Shown piece after piece: positions 31,801 through 64,000 of a stretch of DNA of 64,000 nucleotides. The DNA is from Pelagomonas calceolata. Its lineage: Eukaryota. A program made the translations under genes and the position numbers. The notes beneath the pieces were generated by a model, which was not told where the DNA came from, ran no database searches, and saw only the letters and a program-made list of their open reading frames with translations. The stretch covers positions 1,984,001 through 2,048,000 of the forward strand of contig CAKKNE010000006.1 in NCBI GenBank assembly GCA_918797485.1, written 5' to 3'. Every line of letters begins with the position of its first letter. Positions within the stretch are counted from its first letter, which is position 1.

Positions 31801-31926
31801 CAGAACGCCCGCGGCGGCGCGGTTCGCCTCGAACTGCTTCGCGATGGCCTCGATGGCGCCCAACGCGGCCCTGGCGCCGCCGCCCACGCAGGTGAGGGCC
31901 GCGTCGTCGTCGTCCAGGGCCACCAT
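28852..31926 (-). CDS. Large coiled-coil protein with RLEAE/Q repeats and C-terminal CLSCDRP motif (QRICH2/DUF4795-like)
   Basis: Long ORF of helical composition. First ATG at 31926. KAD...KVD...KCLSCDRPL near the C-terminus. Confidence 0.75.
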
Positions 31927-32225
31927 TTTCCTTAGATGCGACTCGTCGCGCGCCGGCAATGCCGGTGGTAGGGGTCTATTCGATTAGGGGGCGCGTCGGA
32001 TGACCGCCTGGCTGGCGCGCGCCGGGGCAGCCCCGCTCGCGCTACGACCGGTCCTCCCCGGCTGCGCGTCCGGCCCGCGCGCCCGCAAATGCGATGTACT
32101 GCGGAGGGAGAGCGCGCGGCGCTGAAGGCTAGAGGCCGCAACAAAATCTAGTCAGATCCACCAATGTAACTCTCGGATAGGTGGGGGCAGGTGGGGGCGG
32201 CTCGGCGGCGGCCGCAGCAAACCTA

Positions 32226-33956: not shown

Positions 33957-34221
33957 GATTGGTCTTGTACACCCCAGCCAGAAGCGGTCTAGTAAATCTA
34001 GTAAATGTGCCCACTGGCAGGCATTTTTTTCGTGAAAATTTCGCACCCGTGTACAGATACCTCCGCGCGGACCGAGTGCGCGCACGGATGCGCCCAAATG
34101 TTTCCGGAGCATCCGCACAGTTGTGCTGCCCAACGCGACCGGCTCGTTGTGCCCGTCGCGGCGCACGCCTAGGCCTGGGCGTCGAGGCAGCCGTCGACGG
34201 CCGCAAACCGGCACGCTGGCG

Positions 34222-41163: not shown

Positions 41164-41532
41164 GGCTGCGCTGCCAGCAAGGGCTGTGCTAGGCCGGAGG
41201 CTGTCTGCAGCGTGTAATCGGTGCTGCCAGTATATTCAAGTGACAGCGCTATTGCGTAGCAGCGTGTAATCGATGCTTAAGCCACCAATTCGGCTGCCGC
41301 GGCGAGCCGAGACGCCCGGGCTACCGTAATCCCACTAGCAACCCGACTTCCGCAAACGCCGCCCCAACCCTCCGCCGAGCCCTGTTCCCACGTCTCGCCC
41401 CAGCGAACAGAAGAATCAAACAATGCGACCGGGCTTCTCCCGGGTTTGGGCCCAGCGGCACCAAAGCCAGCTTTGGGGCAGCAGCCAGCCTGCCTCGCTG
41501 CATGCGAAAGCGATGAAGTTACATTGAGAAAC

Positions 41533-44500
41533 ATGTTTCTATGGCTGCTGCTGCTCAGGGCAGCCATAGCCCAGAAGGTGGTACCCATACCTCGAGCCCA
41601 GACGCTCCAGGTAGCCGGCCCCATCGACGAGCCCACAAGTATCGAGCTGAGGAGCGCACTCGAGATTCCGGACGAGGGCGAGGCCCAGCTCCCGATCATC
41701 GTCGAGCCGCGGGCCGTATCGATACAAGGAGACGGCGCGCCGCGGATCACGCGCGTGGGCACGGACGCGCCGGACGGCATCTATTCGTCTGGACAGAATA
41801 TTACCGTCACGTTATCGTTCACGAGTCCCGTGGAGATTGTGGGCGATCCCGACGCGTTAAAGCTCGAGCTCGACACGGGATGCAATGACAACGCCTGCGC
41901 CATTCGTGAAGAGCAGTCCTTCACGTGCAAGGCCGACTACGGCGAGTTCGCCCTGACACTTTATGATAGTATAAAGGCGAACGTGTCCTCTACCTTTTCT
42001 GAAACGCGGGGCCCGTCCGACCCGAAGATGTGGGCGCCTTCCGGTACCGCTAGAAACGTCGGTGCTCTAGATGATCAAGAATTAGTCAAGCAGAAGCTCG
42101 AGACCATCGACGGCATCGAGAACGTGACTGTCTTTTTCGGCGACGAAGACGACCGGGACTACTCCGGTGGTAGGCGAGCCTGCACGTCCAAGGGCAATTT
42201 GATCGTGATCACGTTTGAAAGGTGCTCCTACGCGGACCAGTTCGACGGAGATGTCCCTGAACTGCGGTTAGACGCTACTAATGCGGTGTTGGATCCGAGG
42301 ACCATGCTGCCGGTAGGTGATGGTGTCTACTTGACGGGACGGACAGCTGGTAGTACGGTGTTCGTGGATCCGGTCGCTACGGAACTTACGAAAGGTGTCC
42401 GTCGAAGAAATGGCCTCGCGAATTATATAGGAGGTAACGGTACGGATACATTAACTTTTGTGTATGACGTCATGCCCGGCGACGCCGCCAATCCGTTAGA
42501 AGCGGTCCAATTACTCGATATTAATGGAGATAGTGTGGTCGTTCGAGCAGCAGCATACCCTTATGCGCTTATAGATGCTTCATTACCTCCAGCAAGGACC
42601 GCAGCCCGATACTCGTCGGGCACGGCCAATGCTCTAGGCGCGTCAAATGATGTGATCGTGGACGTCCGTTCACCATTAGTCGTCGACGTGACCTCACCAG
42701 AGGTCGACGGGGAATACGGCGTCGGGGCCGTCCTGCGAATCTGGGTGACCTTCGATCGACAGTTGGCCGTCGGGGGCGAACCGCGCCTGGTCATGGCGAC
42801 GGGCGCTTCCAATAGTTACGCGTTATTCACGCAAGTCTTGGGGGGAGGGTATACGGCGGAGTTCGAGTACACGGTCGGCGAGGGCGACGCGAACCAAGAT
42901 TTAGATTACTTCGCTACCAATTCATTGTCCGTGGCTTCACCTGGTTATATTGTTCGCAAAGCTCGCGATGTTACCGTGTCTGCAGTTGCGGTGTTAACTC
43001 TACCGGAGCCGGGCAAGCCGGGGTCCCTCGCTCACAACAAGAACATCATGGTCGATACGAGCATACCCTACGTCTTAGATGTGTCGTTAGCGGGCGAAGT
43101 CGCGTCGCGGGACGTGGCCGCCGGCGACGTTTTGGACATCCAGGTCTACTTTAGTAGAGCGGTGGCGATCCGAGGAAGACCTCGGTTATTACTCAGGACG
43201 GGCCGGTCACCAGTTTTCAGAGGAGTCGTGGAGACGCCCGTCGGAGAAAACGGCGTGGTCGCCGCGGCACCTCGAGCCTCCGCAGCGGCCGCTATTCAGA
43301 TCGCGTTCACTTTGTCAATTCCGGCCGTCGTCGGGGATACGTTGAGGATCGCGCTCCCGGGCTTCTCGGGCAATGCGGCCGAAAATTGTTCGTCCGTCGA
43401 CGGCACGGACGCGTGGGTCGCCGGTTTTAGCGGTGCGGGTCGCGACGCGGAGCTTTTGTTGATTGCCGCGCGCGCGTCGCCGGCCCGGACGGCCTTCGAC
43501 GTGCGCGTGCTGTCGCGGTGCTCCTACCTGACACCATCAGCCGGTCTGCGGAGCGGCGCAGACGCCGGGATCTTCGTGAGGGGCACGTTCGCGTCCGGTA
43601 TCATGAAACGCCATAGGGTCGATAATGCGGGCGGCGTCGCGTTGAGTGACGCGTCCGTGACGTACGCTCCCCTGATTGCGGGCGAACCGACGCAACTCTC
43701 ACTGACCTTCACGTCGTTAGCGGCCATCGCGCGCAACGAGACGATAGATTTGGTCTTCTCCGATAGTCTCTTCATCCCGAACTACACGTTACCCAAGTCC
43801 GTGGACCGCAAGTTCTCGTGGGTTGCGAAAAACACGACGGAGCAGGCGCTGGAGGCCGACTCGGCGGACTTCCGCGCGGCGTGGGTCCCGGACCGCGTCG
43901 TCCCGCGGCTGCGGTTTCGGGCGGCGCGCTTACTCGACGCGGGGACCTACACCGTCGGCTTGACCTCGTCGAAGGTCCTGGAGCTGCCGGCGGGCGGTCT
44001 CCACGCCGACGACGCGCGCATCACGCTGGCCTCGGACGCGCGCGCGTTGGGCGCGCTCAGCGGCTTCGTACCGACGAGTCCGGCCGTCGGCGCCTTTGGT
44101 AGTACTTCATTGACAATTACGAGTGAGGATGGAGGCCGGACGCACGGCGGCGGCCGGTGTCGCATCTCCTTAAAATTCGCCCTGGGCCCGGGCCACGCGT
44201 CCGCCGGCGACGTCATCACCTTAGCCTTGGACGTGGCGGGTCCCGACGACGAGGCTTATATCGGAGAACCACTTATTAGTGAGGGATTTAGTGTATCAAT
44301 CGTGGAGAATGCCATCCGGCTGACCGTGCTGAACGACAATGACATTGGCGGCGGCGCCGGACGCATCGTGACGGTCTCCAATCTGGTCCTGGCGCCGGGG
44401 GGCGTCGCCCAAGATTCATCGTCCATAACGTTGACGTCTTCCTCGGCCCACGTGCCGACGACCGCGATTCCCGTTCTCAAGACCACGGCGGTGGCCGGTA

Positions 44501-47500: not shown

Positions 47501-50500
47501 CTTCAGTGGCCTTTGCCTCGGCCGAATTTAGAATGAGGATCGAGGCGCGGGACTGCCCCACGGGCTGGAGCCACGCCAAGAGCCCGGGCGTCGGCCTCGC
47601 GGATGCAAGAGTAGCGGCCTTCTCCGCGCCGTTCGTGCGCGCGGGCGAAGAAGCGGACGTCGTTTTGAGGTTCGACGCGGCCGAGGCGCCTTTAGTGAAT
47701 GGGGACTCGGTGACGTTCAAGCTGCCCGCGTTCACTAATACTACGGAAGTGAGTATACACAGAGACGACCCGGCTCGAAGGCGGCTGAGCGACGACACGT
47801 GTGCGTTGGACGGCAGCGACTACGACTACCAGGAACGCATCGACACGAAGGCGCGCTACGTGTCCACGTCGCACTGCCCGAACCACGTCCTGGGAGAAGG
47901 CACTTCAGTGAACAAGCTCCCGGCGACGTACGCTTTCCCCCTATATCCAAAGTACGACCCGAACAACCCGACGGACCTAAGCGAGCGCGCGGGCGCCATC
48001 GGCACGTTATTTAACGGCGCCATGCTCCTGTCGGGCTACGGCGGGTCGACGCCGGCCGTGAGCTACCAGACGTCGGCGCCCTATTTGTACGGAGACACCT
48101 TCGACGCCTGCGGGTGCACGGTGCGGGAACAGACGTTGGTCGAGGACCTGCACCCGGAGACGATGCTCCCGACCTACGGCTGCCACGGCCCGCCGACGTG
48201 CTTGCTGCGGCAGCTCGACGCGCAGACCTACGCGCACTCGCCGCAGGTCGGCTGGGCCGCCGACGGCTTTCCTGTGTATGGGCCGCGGGGAGAGCATGGC
48301 ACATTAATGAAGGCCTGCGGTTCAACGATAGACGGCCCCTGCCTCGACGCGTGCGGCGGCTACTACGGCCCGTCGTCCCAGGACGAGTATGTCTATAGAT
48401 ACCATACGACGGGCGAGGCCCACGAGGCCAACACCGAGGCCCAGTGCGCGGCGCCGAACACGTATGGATCAGAATTCTACCCCTTCACGCCGGCGTGCCT
48501 CGCGGGCTGCGTGCCCGACGAGCTCATAACGTCGTCGTGCCCGGACTGCGCGTCCTCGGGGTACGTCCAGACCTGTTCTTCGAATGCCGTTGATGGCTTC
48601 ACGTCACTGTTCACACCGAACGCGACGCGGTTCGGTGCGTCGAAGAAGCTATCGACGGACACGAGCTACTGCAGCACGGGAACTGGCGTGGTCTTAGACG
48701 ACCCGTCACTTAAGGTAAAGTGGAACGCGCCCTACCTCAAGTTAACGATTGACGAGGCCTTCCCGACGGCGTCGCATGTCCTCGCGACGGTGCGCGGTTT
48801 AACACTACCGGAAGATGGCATCGATGGCCCCTACGCGGGCGTGACCGTTTCCGTGAATACGGCCGCGACGGGCCCATTATCCGAAACGGCCGTGGAGAGC
48901 GTGCCCGTCATCGCGGCGCTGCACCACTCCTCACTAGATCTGGCCGAGCCCTTCGCGGGCGTCGCCACACGATTAAAACTGCAGATGAACTTTTCTGTGG
49001 ACGTGCCCAAGGGTTCACGGTTACAATTAACTTTGCCTGCATTCAGCATTGACTCGGCAACCTCTGAATCTGACATATTAGATTACGAGGGCTCGACGGG
49101 CGACGTCCACACCTTCGGCTTTGGTATGGCAGTCGACAAGCGCACCCTGGTTGAGTTATCAGTAAACGGCACGGTACCCGTAGAAGGCGTCGACGGCCTG
49201 GGTGACCACGGCTGCATGTTAACCATGAGTGCTGTAGGCCTGGACGCCACGCCCATTCAACACGTCGAGTCGGCGCCCGGTCTAGTTGGTAGTGTCTCGA
49301 TCAGCTTTGGGAGTTTAGACTTCGGGTTCGCGCGCATCGAACGCGGCGACGGGCTCAAGGTGCGGTTCCCGCCGTCGACGTACGGCGACGCCGACGGTCT
49401 GACGAACGCGGACGCGGGCACGCAGTACCGCGTGGGCGGCGCGCTGATGACCGTGGCTTCTATACAAGGTGATGTTATCACCTTCGCGCCGCCGCACGAC
49501 TTTAATGAGACTTCTGTGGTCGTCGCGACGAAATACGACGAGTACGGTTTAGCAAGAGAAGCCGGTCTCGTGGATGTCACGACGCCGGGCTTCCGGCCGG
49601 CCTACTACTACGCGGGTGATCGGACGTCGGCGCTCATCTTCCGGTACCGGGTCCGGCGGGGTGATTTTAGCGATGATTTGGACTACCTCGCGCTCAACAG
49701 TTTGGGCTGCCCCGGGCCCGCGCGGCAGTGGGCCCTGACGCAGGGCGACGGCGAGGAGTGCTACATCCGACGCGATTCGCCGCGGCCGACGGGCGCCGTG
49801 AACCTGGAGCTGCGGGCGCCGGGCGAGGTCGGGTCGTTAGCGTACAACGCGCGCATTAAAGTGGACACGACGCCGGCGAACGTCACGAACATGAGTACCG
49901 CGGCCGCTCTAGCGTGCCACTGGCCCGCGTACTTCGCGTCCGAGGGCTACGCGTCGACGGCGGCGGCGTGCGTCTATGGCAAAGGTCATTTACTGGACAT
50001 TACGGTCGCGTTCGACCGTCCCGTGAGCGCGGACGTGGCCGGTGCCGTAGCACAGTACAACAGGTCCATAGCACAAGGCAACATCACAGTGACGCGGAAT
50101 TACGCGGTCTTCGCGCCCGCTTATCTAGCGGCCAATGTCGAACTGGACATCACGACGTCTACCACGAGGCCGGCGACGGCCTTCTACGCGTCCGGAAGCG
50201 GGACCAAGGACCTGCATTTCGTCTACGACATACGGGAGGGCGACTCCAACGAGGGGGACCTCGACACGGTACCGACCGTCGACGGGAGACGCGCTCTACA
50301 GCCGGGCTTCGGGGGCATCGTCGGTTATTTGAGGTCGTCCTCGGCATCGCCCGAAACGGATATTAATTATGACTCCGTCCCGGAGCCCGGGGCCTACAAC
50401 TCGCTGTCCGCGTCGCCGGGCCAAGCGCGCGTCATCGTCGACGCGAACGCAGCCATCATCACGGCCATCGAAGCGCCCTCCAGAACGTACTCGCCGGGCG

Positions 50501-53500: not shown

Positions 53501-56500
53501 CGCAAGGGTACCTGGTGACGGTCGACGGTTTAGCTGCCCCGGTGGACATCACGGCGGCTTCCCGGAAGCAGTTCGAGGCGTCTCTGTTAGATGCGAATGA
53601 GGACGTGCTCGTCGCCAGCACACCGTTAGCTGATGGTGGGCCTAGAATGAACGCTTTAGAAAGCGCACAGCTCGTCCTCGACCCGTCCGACGCGGTCGGC
53701 GTCGTCGTCGCGCTGAATTTGAGTTTTAGCTTCGTGCGGACCGTGGCGCCCGGCGGGCGCGTGCGCTTGTTTTTGCCGAACGTGCAGGCTTGCTCGTCGC
53801 AGGACCCGGCGCCCCTGGTATCGAGCGACGGCATCTGGTCCCTCGACGAAATCCGAAGCGACGACGAGGGGTCGACACTCCTCTTCGCGCCGGCCGTCGA
53901 GGCCACGACCGCGTCGGGTCTAGAAGTCGGGCGTTCGGCGGGCCTCCGCGTCATCCGGGAGCTGGGCATCCCGGAGGACGGGCCCAAGCTGTCGATGATT
54001 GACATCGAGTACGGCGCGCCGCTGGCACCGACGTGTCTGGGGGGTGCGTGCGCGCCGCTCAAGCTCCGGAAAAACAAACGAAGTTTGTTCGTGGGCATCG
54101 GCGCGCTGAACGCGTCGCTCGCCTACACGCGGCCGTGCTGCGCGTTTGATCGAGACGCGGCCCCGCCGGCGCCCGGCAGCGACGCGCGCGTCGAGCTCAA
54201 TTTTACGTATAGTAGTCCCCTCGTCGAAGGCGATGTCTTGGAGGCGCGCCTCGGGGGCTTTGCTGCATTAAACAGCACGGTGACGATCGAGGAGCACTAC
54301 TTTGGTGAAGACGAGGACAGCTGCGAGTTTCAGTTAGGTTTCAACGAAACCGCGGGATGGGCCAACAGCACGCTGACGCTGCTCGTGACGCGGGGCTGCG
54401 CCGCGAGCCAGCCCGGCGGCATCTCCATAAGAGGTCTGACGATGCCGACGTCGTCCCTACGCTTCGACGAGCCTTTCATCACGCTGGCGTGCCCTCGTTG
54501 TAAAACGGCGCGCGCGCGGCCGGCGCCCATCAAGACGCCGGGCTACGGGGTCGCCTTCGCCCAGGCGTTCGTGACCGCGTTGGATGGAGGCCGCGCGAAG
54601 GCGGGCGACACCGCCAGGGTCGTGCTGACGGCGGCCTTCTCCGAAGATGGTTTGGCGGGGGACTACATCGAGTTCTCCGGTTTGGATGGACCTGGCTCCG
54701 ATGGAGGACTGGTGGCGGACGTGGCTCCATCGACCGTAACGTTGCACTGGTACGCTTCTCGAAAGATGGTCCGAATGACCCTGAACGGACGCGTCGCGAA
54801 GAAGGCGCCCATCGAGGCCGTCATCGAGACAGATCTCAAAGTGCCTGCGACGGGCTTAGCTCTCAGAGCCAACCTCGAGGACTCGGTCTGGAGCCCCGGC
54901 GGTGTGAGCGAGTGGCTCGCGGATCCCGTCAAAGTGCACGCGGCTTTGAATCAGAAGATCGGTGCGATTCAAGACGATTATGGTTATGATATAGGAAACG
55001 TGGCCTTGGATAACGTCGAGCACAACCCGACCGCCGACACGACGCCCGTCGGCGCGCTCCTCAATGGGACGCTCGACTTTGGCGCAGACGCGAAGGCCGG
55101 CGCGCCGTCAGATATTGATATTCTCCTCCAGTTCGTCGCGCCGCTCGTCGAGCACGACGTCATTACGATCGACTTCGGTTCCGCGTCGTCGACGGGCGTT
55201 TCGACGACCGAGGTGCTCGGTGCGGACGCCGACAAGGTGGCCGCATCGATAGCGGGTCCTCTGGCGACTTTCACGGTCCTCCAATCCGTCAAGGCGGGTG
55301 CATTCATACGACTCACAATCCCGGCGACGGCGGGCCTCGGCCCGCCGTCGACAGGAATTGAGGACGACGACGTCGGCGCTCATGTTTCGGTCGAGGCGGC
55401 GCACGGCGCCGTCGCCGCCACTTTGCTGACCGTGCGGCGGCCCGTCTGCGCGTTATCCACCGGATCGCTTGAGATCGAAGGCGCCACGGCCCCGGAGCCC
55501 GGGACCCTGCGCGACATTTTACTAGACCTCAAACTGACGCGGGCGGCGTCTTCCGGTTCGCGCATCGAAGTACGCCTGCCCAACTACGCGAACCACACGG
55601 CGACCTACGCCGAGATGGACGACGGCAACGTGACGCTCGATCGGATTCTGAATGGGAACCACACGGACTCCTACCTCCGCATGTATATCAGACCGTTCGT
55701 GCCCCTTTCCACGATTAAGGTGGCGCTGTACCAGGTCAAGCTCCCGTCCGGATCGTCGTACCTCGACCAGCAGGACTTCGTCTTGAGGATAGACGACGTC
55801 AATTCAGAAGGATGCGCGCTGCGGGAGTTTGTGCCTTTGTCCAGCGTCGAACCCATCGGTCTCTCGTCCTCTGCATTAAGCTACGACGACGACGCGCGCG
55901 TCGGGGAAGTATCAGCGTTCGAGCTCAAGTGGGCCTACGGCCAGGCCTTCTTCGGGGGGAAGATCAAGTGGCGCCTGCCGGGCTGGACCCTCGACGGCCG
56001 AAACAACCGGACGGGCACGGCGCGCGTCTTCGCCGGACGGGCCACGGCGCTCGCGAACGTGTCCTTCGACGTCGACGACCAGGTCTTATATCTTGCTAAA
56101 TTACCGAGGGCTCGGAAAGCGCAGACGGAGTTCGTCCTCAAGATGCCGGCCCGCTTCGGCTTGAAGCCGCCCCGGTCGGGCGACGGCGCCGGCCCGAGCG
56201 TCTCGTATCAGATACGGGACAAGTCCGCGGCCTTCACGCCGGTGCAGCGCATGGCCGTGCGCCTCCCGGCCGTCCACTTTGCGCAGCTCGCCTTCCACGC
56301 GCCGCGCCCGGTCGTCGGCGACGCGTCGGGCTTCACGCTCACGTGGAACACGTCTACGGAAAGCGCCAACAACGGCTTCATCCTGAAGGATGGAATCGTA
56401 CTGTTATCCCTACCGGGCTGGCTGCCGCGGGGCGCCGCGGCCGCGGCGCTGGCGTCCCGGGCGAGGGCTCCGTTAAGTATAGGCGGTCTGGATGGCGCGA

Positions 56501-59500
56501 ACTTCAGCGCCGTCCTCACGGGCGCCGCGGCGCTGGAGCTGACGGCGAAGACCAATTTGAGGCAGCTGAACTATGAGATTATCGTCCCGTCGGACGTCGT
56601 CGCGCCGGCCTACGGCCTGAGTTCGTACAACGACGTCGCGCTGCACCTGGCGCCGCGGGGCGCCGCATCGACAAACGAGAGGGACTGGGTCGCGTCCGTC
56701 GACGTGCACTTCCCGACGCCGGTCTGTTCGTTGGTCGACGCGGTCAACGCGTCCGTCTGGATCGGCCGGGGCGCCGTCGACACGGTCATGGAGCGGTTCG
56801 ACCTGGCGGACACCTTCAAGAATCGTGCCTTCGCGAGGACCCCCGCGGCGGCCGACGTTCGTGCCTCTTCGCTGGCCTACGACGCGACGTCCTTCCGGAT
56901 ACGTCGGCCGACGGGCGCCGACACGTCCATCAGCAAGGACCTCCCCCTCAATGTCTACGTGCAGTTCCGGCTGTCCGAGGACTTGGCCCCCGGCGACGAG
57001 GTCGAGGTCTGGCTGCCGCGCTTCCGGCTGTCGAACCCCGACCAGCTGATGCCGTGGGTCCCCATCGACCGGGGCCTCCCGGTCGACACGCGGTGGCAGG
57101 CCCAATTCGTGAGCGTCGCGTCCAGCTCTTTAAGCGCGGCGCGGCCGCGCGAGGGCGAGTTCGGGGTCGTCTTGAGGCTGAACGCCACGGAGGGGTTGCC
57201 GCGCGACGGCTTCGCGGCCGTCGCGGTCGCCACGGCTTTGGAAGGCGGTGTGGACCTGCTCCCGCCGGAGGACCGCCTGCGGCCCTATCGGGCGGAAGGC
57301 CTCGACGACCGCGTCACGCTCTCGTCGACGTCACCAAACTGCCCGCTGCCGCCGACCGTATTACGGGGCGCGCCGCGCTTCGGCCTGCAGGGGGCCTCCG
57401 TCGACATTTATGGATATAGTGGAGGCGCGCGGGACGCGTCGATCGGCATCCCGGGCGAGCCCGCCAACGCTTTGTTGGATACGGCGCCCTCATTAGATAC
57501 TTCCGTGGAACTAGCGCTGACCTTCGACAGTAGCTGCGATTTGACGGAAGGCGATGCCATCACGTTCTCGCTGCCAGCCTTCCGCGGGGCCGACGTCGCC
57601 GACGAGGCCAAGGTCGACTACGCCGGGGCGGACGCGGCGAAGCCGCGCCTGCCGTCGGCGACCTTCGACTTCGCCTTCACGGGCGGCGGCACGGACCAAG
57701 CCAAGGTCGTCCTCACGGCGTCGTCGCACGCGGCCGCGGGACCGCGCACGTTGACGCTAGGTGCTTCTTATGGTTTGAGACCGCCGCCCCAGGGCCTACC
57801 GCGGGGCCCCGTCGGCCTCACGGCGACCATCTCCAGCAATTGCACGGGCGGCGCATTGAATCCCGTGCCGCTCGACGCCGCCCCCTCCTACGGCACGTTC
57901 TCGAACGCTTCCCTAGCCTTCGAGCCGTCGACGGCGAATGCCCTGGCGACGATGGTCCTCGAGGTGGCGCCCACGTCCTCCCTGGAGCCGGGCGACTCCT
58001 TGAATGTCTGGGTGCCCGGCTTTAGTTTCACGGCGCCCCTCGGCGGGTCGCTCGACGACGTCGCCTTCGCCTCGTCCTCGTCCGCGGAGTTGCGCGTGCA
58101 ATACGTCGAGGGGAGCTTCGGGAGCGTCGAACTAGGTGCCCTGAAGGTCGCGGACGGGGGCTACTTGCGACGGGATTCCGACGACCCGGAGACGCCCGCG
58201 GGCCTGGAATCCATGCGCGCGAAGGTCAACGAGGCGCTTGCTTCATCACAATTGTACGAAGAGACGCCGCCGCAAATACTGGACGTACGGGCGGCGTTGT
58301 ACGCGGCGCCCGGCGGCGGCGACGACCAGAGCGCGCTCCGCGGTACGAGTATCTGCGCGGGCGAACTCATCCCCATCTTCGTCGTTTTTGATAAAGATGT
58401 GTCCGTGTATGCGTCCTCGAGAACGTCGCCGCCCTACGCCCTGGAATTAGATGTTGGCAACGGTAGAACGGTATTAGCGCCGCTGTCGACGGGCGTCCAC
58501 GGCTGGTCTACGACGAAGAATCTGGGGAGTAGATATTTGAGGTTTGACTACGTGGTCGGCGAAGGCGACTACTCGAAAGATTTAGCGCCGATCCACACGC
58601 AAGCTTTAGTACGAGACCCCTTACAACCGACGGCCGCGATCAGAAGAGCCGTCGGCGAGGAAGTAGAAGTCCCGGGGCTGCCGGGCCTGTACTACATGCC
58701 CGACGCGTTCCGGACGCCGGTCAACGCGAACCTGAGTCTGCCCATCCTTGGGCGGCTAGCTAGAGATGCGGCCGACGACGCGGCGTTCGGCCGGAGGCCC
58801 CTGCATGTGGACGGGCGGTTCGACGTGAGCGTTGTTTCGGTGGCAACAGCGAAGAACATGAGCACGGCGGAGTGGCCCGTGTTTGGTGCTGGTGAAATCT
58901 TGGATATAGATATCACGTTCGATCGAGACGTCGAGGTCAACGGTGTGCCCACGCTAAACATCCAGGGCGGCGGCGTCGCCTATTATACGAGAGGCGGTTC
59001 CGTACAAATCGTCGACGTCGGGGTAAGAGCGGTACCGGCCATCCAGAGCGGCGCGTGGGAACTTACGTACGGCCCTCTCACGGCCGGCTGTTTAGACTGG
59101 GACGCGACGGCGAAGGACGTCCAGAATGCCCTGGCGAAGATCGGGGTCTTCGTGTCGAATAATTATGATCCGGACAACGCCCCCGCGGTTTTACGATCCA
59201 TCGAGTCGTATTCGCTGGGAGGTGGGAGAAGGACGGTCTTCCACTTCCACCCCGACGCGGCCGCGGCCGCGATTGAGGTGGCGACGCGGCCCTTCTGCCT
59301 TCCCCTGAGTCCCAACTCGCCGGGTGCCACAGCAGCTAGGGCACCCTCACCAGTAGCTACCTTCCGCTACCAGACGAGGAAGGCCGACGCGTTACGGTAT
59401 CTAGCCATTAAATCAGAGGACGCCCTGGAATTGCATGGTGTGTACGTGAAGGACGAGTACGTGCCCGACGAGATTTTAGCGAGGACGACGTACTCGAGGC

Positions 59501-62500
59501 GGCCGGCCTCTCTGGTTCTCCCGGAGGCCACGTGGGACTTGGAAGTTTCCAAAATCGCGGTCAACGGTTCCGAGGCATCGGTAATAGACCTCTCGACGGA
59601 CGCGACGCATCCGCTCGAGGCGGGCGACGAGGCGCACGTGATCGTCATCTTCGACGCGCCCGTGTTCGTCGACGAAGACGCGTTTGATACGTTAAAGCTC
59701 TCGGTCATGGTCGACTCGGCCTTCGGGGTGTCGTTGCCCGAGTTCGTGACGCGCGTCTGCTCCTATAGGAAGGGCAACGGCACGGCCTCGCTCTATTTCA
59801 ATTTTTCCGCGGTCGAGGGCGACTCGGCCGTCGCGGTGCGCGCGGAGGCCGACGCCCTGGTGACGACGGGCTGGGTTAGAAGACGTGCTCTGCCGGTGGC
59901 GACGCAGAGTGTAGATTTGAGGGTGCCCTCCTACAAGGGCTGGCGAGAAATTTTATCTGTTGATGGAACCAAACCAGCAAAAGTTATGACCGTGTACAGT
60001 GTCGACCCCATTGAAGCGTTATATGAGCCGGTGATGCTCGGGTCCGGTGATCTCCTCGTCATAGCCGTACGGTTCAACAAGAAGGTGAAATTTGGACGCG
60101 CGGACGGGTCGCCGGTCGAACCGACCGAAGAACGCTTCGGGGACAAGAGCGACTGGCTGCATCTGACGCTGCGGACGGGCCGCATGCTCAACGGCACGAC
60201 GTGGGTCAACGGCACGTACAACGAAAATGGCACGAAGGCGCAGCCCTACGCCTGGCTCCATGAGTATGATGGAAACGGTACCAATACTTTATATTTTAAA
60301 TATATAGTGCAGCCGGCGGACAACTGGAACGACGGCTACCTGAACTACGCCGGGATGCATTCGTTGGAGCTCGGCGAGGGGGTTATACTGGATACGGACG
60401 CGGTCTCGGGATATGGGGAAGCGAATATCGAATTATGTCCCGCTTGTGCCTCATCAAAAGCATTAAACGTGTCGTCGATGCTTATTATCGATACGGTGTC
60501 GACGCCGCGCATCATCGATGCGTATGGCTCCACCGCCTTAATAGACCCTCTGATCGAGGACGACTCGGAAGCGCTGAAGAACGCCTCGGAACGGGCCGAA
60601 TTCTACCGGCGGGCCGCCATCGACGGGTTGCGGGGGCCCGTGCGGGCCTACGACAAGAAATGGAAGGAGCTGAACTACGAGCCCGTGACCTATACCGTCG
60701 GCGACGTCGTGCGACTCGAGGTGGACTTCACGGCGGGAGTCAGCTGGCTGGCCGAGGAATCGCCGCCGCCTCGCTTATACATCGACGGACTCGTCGGTCG
60801 GTACCGCGAATTACAGGACCTGTTCCCGGACGACTACACGTTCGCGAAGTACGTCTCGGGCAACGGCACGAGGTTCCTGCGCTTCGAGTGGGAGGTGCCC
60901 GACGAGAACCCGCTGGTCCACGCGCCTCTGCCCTCGACCGGTGTGGGGAGGCTCGGGTATCGCGGCGTGCGCGCGCTCGTCGATTCTAACGTGAAACTAC
61001 GTCGAGCGGCCTTCGGCGACGCCTTCCTCGGAACGCCTCTGATCCGGAATCCCGAGCTAGGGTTGTTGTCGATGTACCTGCCGCCCTCGGAGAAGTCGCC
61101 CCTGGAGCACTACTACGAGATTCGCATCGACGGGGCCAAGCCGAAAATTATAGATGTCAAATTATCAAAGCACTCGTCGATGGTGCGAGATGCGGGATTA
61201 GCGGTGGGCGTCAGTGCCTTTACGACGGGCGACACCATAGACATCACCGTCGTCTTCTCTGCGGCTGTTGTGGTTGAGGGCGTGCCGACGCTCCTCCTAA
61301 ATGCGAGGGGCGGCGAGCCGCGGTCCACGGATGAAGACCCGCCCTACGCTTATTATTTAAGTGGTTCGGGGACAAATGAGCTGACCTACAGGTACACGGT
61401 GATTCGAGGCGACGACGTGAATGCGCTAAGTCATGCGACCACGCAACACGAGTGCTTCGCCGGTCTGGTGCGGGAGCAGGAAGGATTGCCACTTACGAGT
61501 GGTCTCAACGACACCGAAAGACTAAGCTTAGCCATGACCGTGCGCTGGCCCCACGGCATCACGTGCCCCCGGACGCTCATTCCGGGCCTGGAGCAGCCGG
61601 TGCTATCCATCCTGCGGAAGGCGGAGACGCCGACGATTTCCGCAGATTTGACACTGCCGATGCCGGGCTACCACGTTTTTGCGTACGACAACAATCAGAT
61701 CGAAGCTGTTACGTCGTTAGAGGCCTCCGAGGTCGCCTTATCGGCCACGTCTCTGGAAGGCGATCTCGTGAGCGTCGACACCGCAGCTCCCGTGGTATTG
61801 CATGTGACCTCGCCGAACAAAGATGACGTGTACGGCGACAAGGCGCTCATCACGCTCTATGTCACGTTCTCGGCGCCCGTCGTGATCACGGGCCACAAAG
61901 TCGTCGGCGAGTTGCAACTAGCCTTGACGACGGGGACGGGCCCTGCCTACTACGTCCGAGGGAATGGTACCGCAGTGCTCGAATTTGAATACAACGTCGA
62001 GTACGGCGATACGACGACCGGTTCTTTGGATTACGCCGCGGATACAGAAAAACTGAAAGCTTTGACTTTCTACGAGACGGGCATACCAGAAACGCAGGAA
62101 GCGAAGGCCAACGAGAACGTCGCGTGCAACCTGCGGGGGAGGCAGTGCGAGTTCGTCGCGCAAGGTGGTACTATTGGCGATAGCGGTCCGGACGGCGGCA
62201 CGTCCCATTCTCTGTATATTAATCAAACTGAATCTTTGATAATAACGCAGAAGGTCGTGCCCATCTATCCCAGCGGCGTGTATCGGAGGTTATTAGCGGG
62301 CGCGGACGTCGGCGAGGCGCGGGCGTCGGGCGTGCTTGCGGAACTCAATCTGCCGGCACCGGGACCTCGGAAGACGGTGGCCGACTATGGCAGTCTAGTC
62401 GGCCAAGGGAGGCAAATCATCATCTCCGCCGTGTCGCTTAAAGTATTAGAGGTCTTCGCGGCGAACGGGACTTATGGCGTCGGGTCGCAGATCCACATTG

Positions 62501-64000
62501 GCGTGCGGTTCGAGCGGCCGGTGAACGCCACAGGAGTCTCTTATCTATTGTTGCATCTCGATTCCGCGTTAGACGAGCCCGCCAAGGCGACGTTGGATCA
62601 ATCCAAGCCGTATGAGTTAAGTGAGGTACTATGGTACGTCTACATCGTCCGAGCCGGCGACGCCACCGACTCGCTGACCTATGTCGCCGCTGACAGTTTG
62701 GACGCGACGGAGGGCGCCATCGTTTCGATAGGAGGCGGCTGCCCGGTCACGATGGAGTACTGCCCCGTCGACACCGGTTTGGCCGGCGTGGCCGCGCCTA
62801 CGACGCTCCCGCACCCCGGCATGCCCGGTTCGTTGTCAGTGACCTCTCAGGTCATCATAAACACGGATCCGACGGAGGCCGTCGCCGTGTCGTTGGCCGA
62901 AGGTTTGAGGAGATCTAGTTACGTGTACGCGCCGGGCGCTTCTGTTCCAATCACGCTCACGACGTCGAACCCCGTACGAAGGGACATGGCGGCCAAGATG
63001 TACGGCGGCTTCATCGACGTGGGCGGCTTCACCGATCATATCGAAAGGCGCGCTTCGTTCTCCGAGGGAGAGACGACTCAAGTTTTATCATTCGATCTGT
63101 CAATCCCACACGGCTGCTCGTCCCAACTCCTGAAGCACGCCGGGGCCGAGGGCGCCCTCCATCTCGGCGGAGGCGCCTTCCTGGCGGACGGCGCGTCGAA
63201 CCTCGCGACGGTGCGCGCGGAAGCGCGGCTGCCGTGCCCGAGCGCGCTGGACTCTTTGGCGTCGCAGAACGCGTCCGTCGACGCCACGCCGCCGCGCGTC
63301 GTGTCCGTACGAGCCGCGTCGTCGTCCTCCTCGTCCGACGCGCAAGTTTTGGCGAGGAACGCCTCCGCTTATCTGGTGGTCGAGTTCGATCGGCCTGTCG
63401 TGGTGTTCGACCGGTTACCGTCATCAGACTCAAAACCCATCTGCGAGACCTGCGACCAGAGCGGGGCGTACGTCGTGGCGGGCACGGCGTCGCCCGACGT
63501 CCTAAGAAATCCGGGGCGGCAGGGGTACTGGTACCCGCTCTACCTCGACAAAGACGCCGCTATCAAAGAGTTCGGCGCGCGTATCATCGAGATCACGTTC
63601 ATCCAGATCCCCCAGGTCGTGTTTTATGGACCGGCCGAGAACCCCGAGGCGAGACGAAGGTTAATGTGCGCGCCGGAGTTTGGGTGGTGCAATAACCCGC
63701 TGACGCCGCGGGTCGAGATGCTGAGCGCAGGGCTGTATAACTGGACGGAAGAGGTGGTGGTAGAGGAAGAAGATAATTACACATACTACGAGGGCGGCGC
63801 GTACCCCGGCCAGGTTCTCGTAAAAGACTATCCGCTCTTTGCCGACCTCATTGATGCGTCTGAACGCTCTAGAGATATGGTCGACGACGGCCTGCCGGCG
63901 CTACGCATGGACCTGAGACAGGGCAAGGCCGAGGCGAGGTACGCGGGCGGCTCTGGAACGCATATCATCTCCATGGTGTATGCAGTAGCCCCTGCGGACG
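41533..64000 (+). CDS. Giant secreted repeat protein (at least 7,489 aa, 3'-truncated by window end) with beta-rich Ig-like repeats and a YHYH-like domain
   Basis: First ATG after TAA 41278-41280 gives signal peptide MFLWLLLLRAAIA-QKVV. No stop was found in the segments I translated. The ORF track lists no terminated frame +1 ORF after 41533, which implies the frame is open to the end. Recurring repeat motifs and many NxS/T sequons. Confidence 0.92.
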   Translation, partial: MFLWLLLLRAAIAQKVVPIPRAQTLQVAGPIDEPTSIELRSALEIPDEGEAQLPIIVEPRAVSIQGDGAPRITRVGTDAPDGIYSSGQNITVTLSFTSPVEIVGDPDALKLELDTGCNDNACAIREEQSFTCKADYGEFALTLYDSIKANVSSTFSETRGPSDPKMWAPSGTARNVGALDDQELVKQKLETIDGIENVTVFFGDEDDRDYSGGRRACTSKGNLIVITFERCSYADQFDGDVPELRLDATNAVLDPRTMLPVGDGVYLTGRTAGSTVFVDPVATELTKGVRRRNGLANYIGGNGTDTLTFVYDVMPGDAANPLEAVQLLDINGDSVVVRAAAYPYALIDASLPPARTAARYSSGTANALGASNDVIVDVRSPLVVDVTSPEVDGEYGVGAVLRIWVTFDRQLAVGGEPRLVMATGASNSYALFTQVLGGGYTAEFEYTVGEGDANQDLDYFATNSLSVASPGYIVRKARDVTVSAVAVLTLPEPGKPGSLAHNKNIMVDTSIPYVLDVSLAGEVASRDVAAGDVLDIQVYFSRAVAIRGRPRLLLRTGRSPVFRGVVETPVGENGVVAAAPRASAAAAIQIAFTLSIPAVVGDTLRIALPGFSGNAAENCSSVDGTDAWVAGFSGAGRDAELLLIAARASPARTAFDVRVLSRCSYLTPSAGLRSGADAGIFVRGTFASGIMKRHRVDNAGGVALSDASVTYAPLIAGEPTQLSLTFTSLAAIARNETIDLVFSDSLFIPNYTLPKSVDRKFSWVAKNTTEQALEADSADFRAAWVPDRVVPRLRFRAARLLDAGTYTVGLTSSKVLELPAGGLHADDARITLASDARALGALSGFVPTSPAVGAFGSTSLTITSEDGGRTHGGGRCRISLKFALGPGHASAGDVITLALDVAGPDDEAYIGEPLISEGFSVSIVENAIRLTVLNDNDIGGGAGRIVTVSNLVLAPGGVAQDSSSITLTSSSAHVPTTAIPVLKTTAVAGISDVAWTCLPEPCSLDVPSEWTLTLSYGSTGTISRNSTLSIGVPFFRSLNASKNVTLYRDVDAVSLPYKDHFVTTDLGRPHVLRLAAATVDGADFNFNCTLYGSSTREARIDFVPLRDLPSPGALVLTIPRKSGLTAPRRGLRPSDLLEVSGNAPGFEFGDAVPATPCAGLCATSYTWSATRGNETLTATLTFTYVGAVEKGDALRVTLPGFKREAELVVKLGDSSTLVQVQSWSSDDVLTLVFTAAVSLTDAGTTLQLIGFRGPTRGIVQNQRNFTLQYNISAITADWSEARAVETVPPMEKAAVVTNLRMASLNASSTKQYLGFRYGRPLSSGEAVTVVFSGGFTGKPFIGENTTEITRQGGPDPYSFRVASWDQATETLVLRCNQDIPAEEDVYVNITNLNAPSTGVLPRLRQGITLSTDEDFGTLAFRGVKVGRPILVASQAAVTWVEDELGRQEARRDVGRPGERVVADLSVRLDGADLRHGDTMAWYLPRLHVPDCWADVCGLYVNATSARVNVTANYDLTTEIVTLNILGNITAGAHRTFRVGRVAVDRNLTDTIIPGVRNRTLALPSDGWPSSRAAHVTISSGDDSWDTIDQLPVTVPCAGLCASALSFEEPRAGAPTSVAIQWSTSFAPNSGDSFRVSFNGGADADCGVLMNEGDCIRRLRAGGGRSKTPLQIGGVDGRSFAGTWIANTSSVQLMTTDYGIASSKRSFSIIVEYGSYLALPVAGIPQNDASISLGYNSSRAGSTPSSYLPFRGVGTVPSSSSPRSDCALPCFTFLSRDVSPGSVTVIRVIFAYGDALAEGDLLNVSLPDFFRLGFWKSGAFSVSHGHAGTWDATSHIVSVTLGEAFAARKPIEFNITGLHLPTSPLLENDERLRVSVDGAATAHTSVSAASSPPVGVLESSSLHWVKPRVATTVGSGLNVTIRASCALVANDRLIVELPGFSASGSSIPLDDDIWGSSAAWDSQRLTFTLQQDQVYGDLTASIKEDALLKPSSVAFASAEFRMRIEARDCPTGWSHAKSPGVGLADARVAAFSAPFVRAGEEADVVLRFDAAEAPLVNGDSVTFKLPAFTNTTEVSIHRDDPARRRLSDDTCALDGSDYDYQERIDTKARYVSTSHCPNHVLGEGTSVNKLPATYAFPLYPKYDPNNPTDLSERAGAIGTLFNGAMLLSGYGGSTPAVSYQTSAPYLYGDTFDACGCTVREQTLVEDLHPETMLPTYGCHGPPTCLLRQLDAQTYAHSPQVGWAADGFPVYGPRGEHGTLMKACGSTIDGPCLDACGGYYGPSSQDEYVYRYHTTGEAHEANTEAQCAAPNTYGSEFYPFTPACLAGCVPDELITSSCPDCASSGYVQTCSSNAVDGFTSLFTPNATRFGASKKLSTDTSYCSTGTGVVLDDPSLKVKWNAPYLKLTIDEAFPTASHVLATVRGLTLPEDGIDGPYAGVTVSVNTAATGPLSETAVESVPVIAALHHSSLDLAEPFAGVATRLKLQMNFSVDVPKGSRLQLTLPAFSIDSATSESDILDYEGSTGDVHTFGFGMAVDKRTLVELSVNGTVPVEGVDGLGDHGCMLTMSAVGLDATPIQHVESAPGLVGSVSISFGSLDFGFARIERGDGLKVRFPPSTYGDADGLTNADAGTQYRVGGALMTVASIQGDVITFAPPHDFNETSVVVATKYDEYGLAREAGLVDVTTPGFRPAYYYAGDRTSALIFRYRVRRGDFSDDLDYLALNSLGCPGPARQWALTQGDGEECYIRRDSPRPTGAVNLELRAPGEVGSLAYNARIKVDTTPANVTNMSTAAALACHWPAYFASEGYASTAAACVYGKGHLLDITVAFDRPVSADVAGAVAQYNRSIAQGNITVTRNYAVFAPAYLAANVELDITTSTTRPATAFYASGSGTKDLHFVYDIREGDSNEGDLDTVPTVDGRRALQPGFGGIVGYLRSSSASPETDINYDSVPEPGAYNSLSASPGQARVIVDANAAIITAIEAPSRTYSPGDNLDIKVTWSEKIVPPKNCSGSHFMLWLDLANDRLAAELGAPKYVPYGAQALPHNGSATRSLMFRYVVRVGDESERLETACVPCASAVVETAALWANASCNPLTLSTNRPASLILPLRTDDGTLGKSSNVVVTSAMPKILKVDADASDVQTAPLAAGDMLRVFVRYDAAVVVAGDVAFAATRPYLDEAPRLELTIGDGQDSPFRGHDRAHRLISARYAAGSGTSIIRFDCVVRAPLGTVRADYDTSFSLKGSMWRLSDRPVLEANTTLPARGGPMSLGGFGVGLFALSVNTRRPEALKASLSRQTGVHSHRRQTLDLIILRRWAAPDTPPSITGGSFRVALGSVLETDPCIEASNASAATIQAALGATHGHLAPRVSEQPVRRGDGWRRRFIVETGAGGHALLETDICVELRCSDIKGGLKRKDADQTNETCAVVEANADGAFIGGSSVDVDVDYAGYPLTGRGGLAGALSDGGYMTRSAGSLFQTIDVGVDASTQMTGGAFQLLYGSARTGCIQYDAGDGGTRSVRNQLNQLAEVRAIGGVRKVLTYARANGYRFVVEFAAAHCSPLKLRPAVDRVGEECDLLDPPDAQVVIDAEEVITLKRDAQPGSSFVLKVVNGSIAANETLSISIPRVATPVYGVGVSGATSLRPRVWSARSPYARLRTGASRSDRAVNWTSDTPDASPVVPAYVALKPALLAFVGAAVRFEPALPGAATSIDVSFAPSEQLLPGDVITLRLHPRAGAYGGMCRGCILGNATDGFGFVSASVEKGSMIVNATVARTVAALTYVRFVLDANNSLTLPATAVYSVDDSGGWLRRDERMPKFRNASFDAATLEFDGRGIRADAQPVETLKGSGLAWASLSFSGGAATPGAPTGIDVSFGVAAPIQLVESRNRTLPRRRVSVDAKIEWRYRPPMHIYGEVRLVLPGFLDPRERADILRSGSDDSRDLILSGRDAAYFIGRWGGLRERDWEWETTDQTSENNATLNGTLSLYALAPLVPRPQGYLVTVDGLAAPVDITAASRKQFEASLLDANEDVLVASTPLADGGPRMNALESAQLVLDPSDAVGVVVALNLSFSFVRTVAPGGRVRLFLPNVQACSSQDPAPLVSSDGIWSLDEIRSDDEGSTLLFAPAVEATTASGLEVGRSAGLRVIRELGIPEDGPKLSMIDIEYGAPLAPTCLGGACAPLKLRKNKRSLFVGIGALNASLAYTRPCCAFDRDAAPPAPGSDARVELNFTYSSPLVEGDVLEARLGGFAALNSTVTIEEHYFGEDEDSCEFQLGFNETAGWANSTLTLLVTRGCAASQPGGISIRGLTMPTSSLRFDEPFITLACPRCKTARARPAPIKTPGYGVAFAQAFVTALDGGRAKAGDTARVVLTAAFSEDGLAGDYIEFSGLDGPGSDGGLVADVAPSTVTLHWYASRKMVRMTLNGRVAKKAPIEAVIETDLKVPATGLALRANLEDSVWSPGGVSEWLADPVKVHAALNQKIGAIQDDYGYDIGNVALDNVEHNPTADTTPVGALLNGTLDFGADAKAGAPSDIDILLQFVAPLVEHDVITIDFGSASSTGVSTTEVLGADADKVAASIAGPLATFTVLQSVKAGAFIRLTIPATAGLGPPSTGIEDDDVGAHVSVEAAHGAVAATLLTVRRPVCALSTGSLEIEGATAPEPGTLRDILLDLKLTRAASSGSRIEVRLPNYANHTATYAEMDDGNVTLDRILNGNHTDSYLRMYIRPFVPLSTIKVALYQVKLPSGSSYLDQQDFVLRIDDVNSEGCALREFVPLSSVEPIGLSSSALSYDDDARVGEVSAFELKWAYGQAFFGGKIKWRLPGWTLDGRNNRTGTARVFAGRATALANVSFDVDDQVLYLAKLPRARKAQTEFVLKMPARFGLKPPRSGDGAGPSVSYQIRDKSAAFTPVQRMAVRLPAVHFAQLAFHAPRPVVGDASGFTLTWNTSTESANNGFILKDGIVLLSLPGWLPRGAAAAALASRARAPLSIGGLDGANFSAVLTGAAALELTAKTNLRQLNYEIIVPSDVVAPAYGLSSYNDVALHLAPRGAASTNERDWVASVDVHFPTPVCSLVDAVNASVWIGRGAVDTVMERFDLADTFKNRAFARTPAAADVRASSLAYDATSFRIRRPTGADTSISKDLPLNVYVQFRLSEDLAPGDEVEVWLPRFRLSNPDQLMPWVPIDRGLPVDTRWQAQFVSVASSSLSAARPREGEFGVVLRLNATEGLPRDGFAAVAVATALEGGVDLLPPEDRLRPYRAEGLDDRVTLSSTSPNCPLPPTVLRGAPRFGLQGASVDIYGYSGGARDASIGIPGEPANALLDTAPSLDTSVELALTFDSSCDLTEGDAITFSLPAFRGADVADEAKVDYAGADAAKPRLPSATFDFAFTGGGTDQAKVVLTASSHAAAGPRTLTLGASYGLRPPPQGLPRGPVGLTATISSNCTGGALNPVPLDAAPSYGTFSNASLAFEPSTANALATMVLEVAPTSSLEPGDSLNVWVPGFSFTAPLGGSLDDVAFASSSSAELRVQYVEGSFGSVELGALKVADGGYLRRDSDDPETPAGLESMRAKVNEALASSQLYEETPPQILDVRAALYAAPGGGDDQSALRGTSICAGELIPIFVVFDKDVSVYASSRTSPPYALELDVGNGRTVLAPLSTGVHGWSTTKNLGSRYLRFDYVVGEGDYSKDLAPIHTQALVRDPLQPTAAIRRAVGEEVEVPGLPGLYYMPDAFRTPVNANLSLPILGRLARDAADDAAFGRRPLHVDGRFDVSVVSVATAKNMSTAEWPVFGAGEILDIDITFDRDVEVNGVPTLNIQGGGVAYYTRGGSVQIVDVGVRAVPAIQSGAWELTYGPLTAGCLDWDATAKDVQNALAKIGVFVSNNYDPDNAPAVLRSIESYSLGGGRRTVFHFHPDAAAAAIEVATRPFCLPLSPNSPGATAARAPSPVATFRYQTRKADALRYLAIKSEDALELHGVYVKDEYVPDEILARTTYSRRPASLVLPEATWDLEVSKIAVNGSEASVIDLSTDATHPLEAGDEAHVIVIFDAPVFVDEDAFDTLKLSVMVDSAFGVSLPEFVTRVCSYRKGNGTASLYFNFSAVEGDSAVAVRAEADALVTTGWVRRRALPVATQSVDLRVPSYKGWREILSVDGTKPAKVMTVYSVDPIEALYEPVMLGSGDLLVIAVRFNKKVKFGRADGSPVEPTEERFGDKSDWLHLTLRTGRMLNGTTWVNGTYNENGTKAQPYAWLHEYDGNGTNTLYFKYIVQPADNWNDGYLNYAGMHSLELGEGVILDTDAVSGYGEANIELCPACASSKALNVSSMLIIDTVSTPRIIDAYGSTALIDPLIEDDSEALKNASERAEFYRRAAIDGLRGPVRAYDKKWKELNYEPVTYTVGDVVRLEVDFTAGVSWLAEESPPPRLYIDGLVGRYRELQDLFPDDYTFAKYVSGNGTRFLRFEWEVPDENPLVHAPLPSTGVGRLGYRGVRALVDSNVKLRRAAFGDAFLGTPLIRNPELGLLSMYLPPSEKSPLEHYYEIRIDGAKPKIIDVKLSKHSSMVRDAGLAVGVSAFTTGDTIDITVVFSAAVVVEGVPTLLLNARGGEPRSTDEDPPYAYYLSGSGTNELTYRYTVIRGDDVNALSHATTQHECFAGLVREQEGLPLTSGLNDTERLSLAMTVRWPHGITCPRTLIPGLEQPVLSILRKAETPTISADLTLPMPGYHVFAYDNNQIEAVTSLEASEVALSATSLEGDLVSVDTAAPVVLHVTSPNKDDVYGDKALITLYVTFSAPVVITGHKVVGELQLALTTGTGPAYYVRGNGTAVLEFEYNVEYGDTTTGSLDYAADTEKLKALTFYETGIPETQEAKANENVACNLRGRQCEFVAQGGTIGDSGPDGGTSHSLYINQTESLIITQKVVPIYPSGVYRRLLAGADVGEARASGVLAELNLPAPGPRKTVADYGSLVGQGRQIIISAVSLKVLEVFAANGTYGVGSQIHIGVRFERPVNATGVSYLLLHLDSALDEPAKATLDQSKPYELSEVLWYVYIVRAGDATDSLTYVAADSLDATEGAIVSIGGGCPVTMEYCPVDTGLAGVAAPTTLPHPGMPGSLSVTSQVIINTDPTEAVAVSLAEGLRRSSYVYAPGASVPITLTTSNPVRRDMAAKMYGGFIDVGGFTDHIERRASFSEGETTQVLSFDLSIPHGCSSQLLKHAGAEGALHLGGGAFLADGASNLATVRAEARLPCPSALDSLASQNASVDATPPRVVSVRAASSSSSSDAQVLARNASAYLVVEFDRPVVVFDRLPSSDSKPICETCDQSGAYVVAGTASPDVLRNPGRQGYWYPLYLDKDAAIKEFGARIIEITFIQIPQVVFYGPAENPEARRRLMCAPEFGWCNNPLTPRVEMLSAGLYNWTEEVVVEEEDNYTYYEGGAYPGQVLVKDYPLFADLIDASERSRDMVDDGLPALRMDLRQGKAEARYAGGSGTHIISMVYAVAPAD

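Follow-up and report, generated by a model that had tools for sequence, protein, structure and literature searches.

Among the systems described so far, the fibrillar adhesins of bacteria (FdeC, invasin, Antigen I/II, PrgB, the MSCRAMMs and the pilins) resemble the giant protein of Pelagomonas calceolata reported here in (probable) secretion, great length, tandem beta-sandwiches and a candidate tip, and the predicted models of two of its repeat units, A and B, match their domains. On the other hand, the Pelagomonas protein is eukaryotic, no anchor was found in its C-terminus as read from relatives, and its domains are nested in other domains. Giant secreted proteins are already known from stramenopiles. 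In Saprolegnia, secreted fibronectin-III proteins of 5,297–9,440 aa are expressed in cysts, and a role in attachment has been proposed for them (PMC5771568); two of these from S. parasitica, SPRG_05384 (6,547 aa) and SPRG_19863 (9,440 aa), are similar to the Pelagomonas protein as secreted, giant, N-glycosylated stramenopile proteins (PMC5771568). The tubular mastigoneme proteins (Ocm/Mas) are likewise structural proteins that stramenopiles secrete, and their known host range is similar; EGF-like domains are present in the hair proteins described so far (PMC3471859, PMC2108286), and Ochromonas danica is a model for tubular flagellar hairs (PMC2108286). Other points of comparison are the F-type lectins, such as eel lectin, FBP32 and the streptococcal fucolectin-related proteins, which have been described in general terms (PMC9316650), and the 'CTE-like domains' mentioned for mycobacteriophage Bxb1 (PMC13252515). 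We found no description of the family of the Pelagomonas protein in the literature covered, a scope that leaves out most subscription journals.

The stretch of DNA analysed here (64,000 nucleotides, hereafter the window) contains a reading frame that the original prediction had described as a giant ORF missed by the ORF track. Frame +1 holds 7,489 codons from 41533 to 63999 without a single stop, while each of the other five frames has 150–326; the ORF was hidden because the window edge cuts it, and it enters the ORF list only if open ends are allowed. Its N-terminus, MFLWLLLLRAAIA, is hydrophobic (19-residue KD mean 1.69), and the alignment with the start of an Achlya orthologue, which carries the source name 'secreted protein', begins at residue 6; from these sequence features the proposed signal peptide at 41533 is likely. 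Two related loci, L001 and L002, were found in 34 candidate stretches. Both carry the frame on to an identical double stop, which places the stop beyond the window as anticipated, and from L001 the full-length protein is likely to have about 9,300 aa. The last 1,813 aa are read from relatives since the window ends before the stop, and the full-length window protein was not among the two matches of a protein-collection search. The size had been predicted to be titin-scale. In fact, titin is about four times as large, so that the Pelagomonas protein reaches roughly a quarter of it and comes close to the 9,440-aa Saprolegnia protein. The features of the locus are as follows:

41533..64000, + strand: giant single-exon ORF, 7,489 aa in the window, about 9,300 aa in total as estimated from L001
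41533..41571, + strand: likely signal peptide, aa 1–13 (sequence, hydropathy, start shared with the Achlya secreted orthologue)
41740..41871, + strand: N-half of A1, a predicted Ig-like sandwich (profile, model)
41872..42408, + strand: C1 unit inside A1, aa 114–292 (alignment; fold like Bxb1 surface domains, Z 5.8–6.8, in a low-confidence part of the model)
42409..42672, + strand: C-half of A1 (profile, model)
42673..43065, + strand: A2, an unsplit A domain (profile, model, fold match)
43066..43212, + strand: N-half of A3, aa 512–560, host of B array 1 (profile, alignment)
43255..49287, + strand: B array 1, 12 domains of about 140 aa inside A3, the 11th split by YHYH (profile, model)
47785..48567, + strand: YHYH domain (PF14240) in the 11th B domain (Pfam, 26.2 bits, cut-off 25)
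49300..49572, + strand: small insert of about 100 aa (alignment with orthologues)
49585..49875, + strand: C-half of A3, aa 2685–2781, about 2,100 aa past its N-half (profile)
49876..51396, + strand: A4–A6, three tandem A domains (profile)
51436..51732, + strand: C2 unit (profile)
51964..52257, + strand: C3 unit (profile)
52585..58095, + strand: B array 2, at least 11 domains (profile)
58267..63999, + strand: run of ten A domains to the window end (profile)
59008..59307, + strand: C4 unit inside an A domain (profile)

Transcription was examined with stranded polyA reads from four raw runs that are one sample on record, 6–12% of each being read, and the strand convention was set by the adjoining minus-strand cyclophilin gene, whose reads flip. 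Sense-strand coverage was found in every bin inside the giant ORF, thus giving the transcript support that had been sought, in short reads that cannot prove one single transcript. Between 41569 and 58900 the sense depth is 0.2–12x in three runs, with an antisense depth of at most 0.35x, and between 56001 and 64000 it is 0.2–41x in two runs, increasing toward the 3' end. Two neighbour genes reach 15–26x, versus 0.2–12x over the 5' 17 kb of the giant ORF, where 3' bias depresses the depth. Six marine RNA runs share 23–35% of words and were not counted as evidence. No GT-AG joint was seen in the reads across the ORF, in agreement with the prediction that it is intronless; three weak joints were rejected as introns, given their non-GT-AG ends and the presence of each in one run only. 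An intronless gene is not odd in P. calceolata, for which a mean of 0.45 introns per gene is reported (PMC9481584), and the oddity is its length. Upstream of the start there are three out-of-frame ATGs, at 41423, 41502 and 41513, one of which opens a four-codon uORF, and the cyclophilin gene, which begins about 370 bases away, runs in the opposite, divergent direction.

The window and L001 have 86% DNA identity and 94.5% protein identity over 3,862 codons, and dN/dS over these codons is 0.071, with 0.11 for B array 2 and 0.044 for the A run. An assembly artefact, a chance ORF or a decaying relic has to be considered in DNA of 60–65% GC, which lengthens chance ORFs. Nevertheless, the other frames are full of stops, a contig from another run is identical to positions 56001–64000 (0 differences), the RNA is in the sense orientation, and dN/dS of 0.07 is accompanied by full-length orthologues; the probability of this explanation is negligible, and we consider it refuted. 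GC3 of the giant ORF (0.77) is near that of four neighbour genes (0.83–0.88). The giant gene is thus confirmed as real, transcribed and under purifying selection, and the idea that it is old and maintained has held, on dN/dS, sense RNA and orthologues across stramenopiles. In a strain contig (run X13), a 1-base deletion and a 1-base insertion lie five bases apart at 58236–58241 and the frame is kept.

The repeat units were counted with profiles built without the window sequence, using ten shuffles and the reversed protein as controls. About 16 type A units had been proposed by eye, and at all 16 starts an N-half or a C-half is in place (14 N-halves and 15 C-halves), with no match in the shuffles or the reversed sequence; the C-half of the unit that starts at 43065 sits at 49600. 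For type B, where about 24 units had been proposed, the 24 profile matches correspond to 23 domains of about 140 aa each, one of them split by YHYH, and there are none in the shuffles. The 'several' units of the form 'Q..G.F.L.YG..T.CI' (type C) turned out to be four, three detected by profile and one, at aa ~120–290, by orthologue alignment. For B and C as for A, neither the shuffles nor the reversed protein produced a match. The units are as highly diverged as had been stated, with mean identities of 26% between B units (55 pairs) and 28% between A units (21 pairs), and DNA self-matches in the giant ORF are limited to three of 35–38 bases. The window part has 92 N-glycosylation sequons.

The chain is a backbone with nested side modules, rather than simple beads on a string. 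The two halves of A3 enclose the whole of B array 1, the small insert follows the array in the same loop, and in the oomycete and Tribonema orthologues this loop holds the small insert alone (about 100 aa), without B. Since both of its ends return to one A domain, B array 1 must close as a loop. In the relative P0312, B array 2 also lies within an A domain, with 13 B units between the halves. No A host of B array 2 was detected in the window by profile, and we infer from P0312 that the array is nested there too, in an A domain too degenerate to be detected. The original prediction had mentioned neither the nesting nor the YHYH domain, nor the C-terminal module that follows past the window edge.

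The YHYH domain (aa 2135–2255) is the only Pfam family matched in the window protein, with 26.2 bits against a gathering cut-off of 25; no match to a Pfam or NCBIfam family was obtained for any of the three repeat types, and A, B and YHYH had no significant counterpart among the PDB sequences. The window protein gave no fn3 match at E values up to 1, nor did the L001 tail up to E 0.05, so that they are set apart from the Saprolegnia giants, which have fn3, by domain content and not by a sequence comparison. EGF-like domains, which are Cys-rich in the Ocm/Mas mastigoneme proteins, were not matched in the window protein or the L001 tail. The same holds for I-set and kinase domains; titin, in contrast, is an intracellular protein with I-set Ig, fn3 and kinase domains, and the Pelagomonas start is signal-peptide-like. 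A second YHYH domain in L001 scores 23.1 bits, below the PF14240 cut-off. The chain could be a scaffold that captures nutrients or metals by holding out, at a distance from the cell, a YHYH domain with catalytic or metal-binding activity, a reading consistent with the pair of YHYH domains present in Pelagomonas and likewise in oomycetes. However, neither the brown-algal nor the Tribonema rows contain the domain, most B-bearing relatives lack it as well, the alignment shows no conservation of its histidines, and Pfam records no activity for the family; we regard such a scaffold as very improbable. RRL motifs occur at window aa 1656, 2083, 6918 and 7375 and at aa 134 of the L001 tail, and those at aa 2083 and at tail aa 134 directly precede YHYH domains; we assume that the motifs next to YHYH may be processing sites. 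At least six YHYH genes are among those listed in the published P. calceolata gene table, and YHYH was not found in the supplements on Aurantiochytrium, P. sojae, brown algae and Saprolegnia.

Structure prediction suggests that A and B are Ig-like beta-sandwiches. The model of A1(C1)A2 has a mean pLDDT of 69, with A parts mostly at 77–97 and C at about 50–60. Its A part was matched to the Ig-like domains of FdeC (Z 7.9, rmsd 7.6, 195 residues aligned over two domains), SbsC (Z 6.5, rmsd 3.0, 95 aligned) and invasin (Z 6.2), and its C part to the Bxb1 tail-tip chain (Z 6.8, rmsd 3.0, 96 aligned, 24% identity), the Bxb1 capsid chain (Z 5.8) and a protein of phage Patience (8giu); all these A and C matches have Z below 8 and may reflect just a common arrangement. 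Taken together, the similarity of C to the phage structures (Bxb1 9d9w and 9d93, Patience 8giu) spans Z 5.7–6.8, rmsd 2.9–3.3, 82–96 residues and 13–24% identity for a low-confidence model; the C unit has no PHROG match, PHROGs otherwise gave nothing useful, and here C sits in Ig-like domains, unlike in the phages. The two-B-domain model has a pLDDT of 87.7 and is closest to YcnI (Z 9.5, rmsd 3.2, 116 aligned), followed by Antigen I/II (Z 9.0) and PrgB (Z 8.7), with pilins and MSCRAMMs also matched. The fold matches of A, B and C are middling and do not demonstrate a function. Foldseek on the model of two A and one C was uninformative, and the viral fold library gave generic Ig-like matches only. 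In the ESM Atlas, B matched unnamed clusters of mostly unrecorded taxa with a score of 0.97 but low recognition, and the best match of the N-terminal block was 0.75; both serve as leads only. The predicted likeness of type A to the Ig-like repeats of giant prokaryotic proteins agrees with the model and with the 31–38% identity that such proteins have to most A–A tandem rows.

The C-terminal part, read from relatives, is in L001 composed of the second YHYH, three more A units, a tip module, a weak Big_9 match and a Cys-rich tail; NCBIfam gave on the tail a weak tandem-95 match only. The tip module is formed by an F-type-lectin-like domain inside a P-domain-like region, the lectin-like domain itself holding a C unit. 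The host region resembles, in our judgement, the P domain of proprotein convertases; with Pfam P_proprotein, the halves had no match and the best relative, P0200, reached E 0.18. The family profile of the tip module matched six fucolectin sequences in the PDB, from E 5.6e-28 (FBP32) to 2.5e-11, the first half of the tip domain being the part that matches F-type lectins, and the L001 tip alone falls below the Pfam cut-offs for this family. The fucose site of F-type lectins follows the motif His...Arg-x-Asp...Arg/Lys. In 13 tip modules, the His is present in 6, the first Arg in 9 and the last basic residue in 4, and all three occur together in 4 of the 13, L001 included, which has Glu in place of Asp. 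Unlike in F-type lectins, the binding loop is broken by the inserted C unit, and the lectin-like domain stands singly at the end of a chain of about 9,300 aa. The Cys-rich tail of L001 has 10 cysteines in 170 residues; 8 of 10 relatives examined have 10–11, and both oomycete rows have 4. The TM or GPI anchor that was to be sought past the window did not appear: none of 13 C-termini (L001 and 12 relatives) has a hydrophobic stretch of this kind, the maximum 15-residue hydropathy in the last 60 aa being at most 1.07 in all of them, and hydropathy revealed no convincing internal TM segment. The protein would work like a fibrillar adhesin, but for want of an anchor it is not filed as one.

A role as filament, coat or adhesin had been put forward, and at a probability of roughly 60% we favour a secreted, adhesin-like surface fibre. 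The product, of about 1 MDa, would probably be secreted and glycosylated: the signal peptide would send the chain through the ER and Golgi, where the 92 sequons point to N-glycosylation. If each Ig-like domain takes up 4.5–5 nm, about 20 A domains could stack into a rod of roughly 90–100 nm. The 12 B domains would close on themselves as a hairpin arm or as a ring, and the conserved B number would set the size of this loop; the second array would likewise be a loop that closes back on the rod. Glycans may be the targets of the lectin-like tip and the C units, whether on particles, on bacteria, on other cells or on the coat of the cell itself. The anchorless protein may be retained through disulfides of the 10-Cys tail or through its attachment to glycans, or it may be released. 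Against a fibre of this kind stand the lack of an anchor, unlike classic adhesins, the incomplete lectin motif in most relatives and the low RNA depth.

A search with the last 1,000 residues of the window protein gave 153 matches, the best 120 of which were listed; among those listed are 11 rows from named stramenopiles (Discosporangium, Scytosiphon, Tribonema, Nothophytophthora, Phytophthora capsici, Pythium insidiosum (2), Achlya (2), Thraustotheca and Thalassiosira profunda) and about ten named bacteria. In the 121 proteins examined, these 120 and P0002, A units are present in all, C in 15, B in 2, YHYH in 8 and the tip module in 13; no named prokaryote carries C, B, YHYH or the tip, so that the named giant prokaryotic A-repeat proteins share only A with the Pelagomonas protein. 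Giant prokaryotic proteins such as P0002, P0064, P0065 and others have 18–27 or more tandem A units. In P0165 and P0179 (Achlya and Thalassiosira profunda), A units are followed by C units and FG-GAP repeats replace the lectin-like tip; they are likely to be a paralogous family. The B profile matched 827 cluster representatives, of which 150 were listed. Many of the 52 listed matches of at least 1,700 aa have 6,000–8,000 aa and the unit order of the window, and others are B-only chains. The order '<C><><[B]><><><>C[B]><C>...tip' occurs in relatives of 7,000–8,000 aa, among them the 7,569-aa protein of Ochromonas danica with its full architecture, and the same backbone occurs without B in oomycetes, brown algae and Tribonema. 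An organism is recorded for 2 of the 20 B relatives looked up, O. danica and Hanusia phi. The B-only giants P0304–P0316 have up to 49 units and 7,659 aa; one of these giants is named from the cryptophyte Hanusia phi, and some end in a C-terminal TM-like stretch.

Both halves of A3 are present in 15 of the 21 B-bearing relatives examined, the other six being cut off, and in those 15 they span 1,745–2,026 aa. The B units detected in array 1 number 12 in seven of the 15, 11 in six, and 10 and 7 in one each. Positional best matches join 9–12 of the 12 units within the P0001 group; between the window and P0359 they join 9 of the 12, and between the window and the P0001 group 1–5. The number of units has therefore been kept, at 11–12 in 13 of the 15, where the single units have largely lost their positional identity. 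It is possible, if quite unlikely, that the protein is part of a cell-covering lattice, in Pelagomonas the perforated theca of pelagophytes and elsewhere the coat of cysts or spores, in which C would join each molecule to its neighbours and the 12-domain loop would surround a pore. The theca is described as a porous, partly fibrous, Golgi-made layer (PMC12168098). The conserved size of the B loop and the modelled resemblance of C to phage capsid and tail surface domains are in line with a lattice; however, the RNA is low for a bulk coat protein, and B-bearing proteins are frequent in the clade of Ochromonas, a chrysophyte that is not known to have a theca.

The tree of the tip region was obtained by a quick search of 39 rows (31 different), is unrooted and has SH-aLRT support only; its supported clades are the pelagophyte pair, the Ochromonas-holding clade, brown algae plus Tribonema, and the oomycetes, with an open backbone. 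It fits vertical descent from an early stramenopile and does not tell gain from loss of the B arrays. The search for tip-module homologues covered proteins of 344–2,000 aa and was crowded by bacterial discoidin proteins, and for these reasons it is silent on absence from any lineage. Family members are publicly labelled hypothetical, 'YHYH domain' or 'secreted protein'. They form a real, ancient, unnamed stramenopile family of giant, probably secreted proteins with an unusual nested design. All named carriers found here belong to groups with flagellated stages in their life cycle, O. danica included, and this distribution suits an unrecognised part of the tubular flagellar hair, such as the base, the terminal filament or the lateral filament. 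Such hairs are assembled within the ER and Golgi, from which they are secreted to the flagellar surface. A constant number of domains in a secreted protein without an anchor would suit a self-assembling part, and the low RNA a minor one. Nevertheless, known hair proteins such as SPRG_05778 have an EGF-like domain and this one has none, oomycetes and brown algae have hairs and no B arrays, and B-only giants exist outside the stramenopiles in Hanusia phi; we regard a hair part as unlikely.

The secreted surface fibre that we prefer would be one of a family of very large, conserved surface proteins whose members range from a picoalga common across the globe to oomycetes that infect plants and fish. 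An array of 12 domains and 2,000 residues inside one loop of another domain is an unusual design; the B count is kept between distant lineages, and the design predicts a shape open to electron microscopy. The family provides candidates for the composition of flagellar hairs, the pelagophyte theca and zoospore surfaces, and for how small algae contact bacteria and particles. More tentatively, and with a doubt that we wish to make plain, the protein could be a building block of a hallmark surface structure of stramenopiles, a flagellar hair or a coat, with the 12-domain loop as a ruler or ring gained or lost in whole lineages.

The neighbours of the giant gene are eukaryotic, mostly single-exon genes that include CDC48, STT3, a B12-dependent methionine synthase, a DnaJ protein and the cyclophilin; one member of the protein cluster of the methionine synthase bears the name Pelagomonas calceolata. 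Two long ORFs have no confident Pfam family, one of 1,035 aa at 28852–31959 on the minus strand and the other of 1,367 aa at 34123–38226 on the plus strand, which is rich in Ala, Arg and Glu and looks coiled-coil-like. The full methionine synthase (1,424 aa, 9926–14200, plus strand) lies just downstream of a truncated copy of 656 aa (7688–9658, plus strand) with the homocysteine and pterin domains only. The copies are 99.95% identical over 1,877 bases; the 656-aa form is found on 86 contigs, and in one public gene model the two are joined as a single protein of 2,120 aa.
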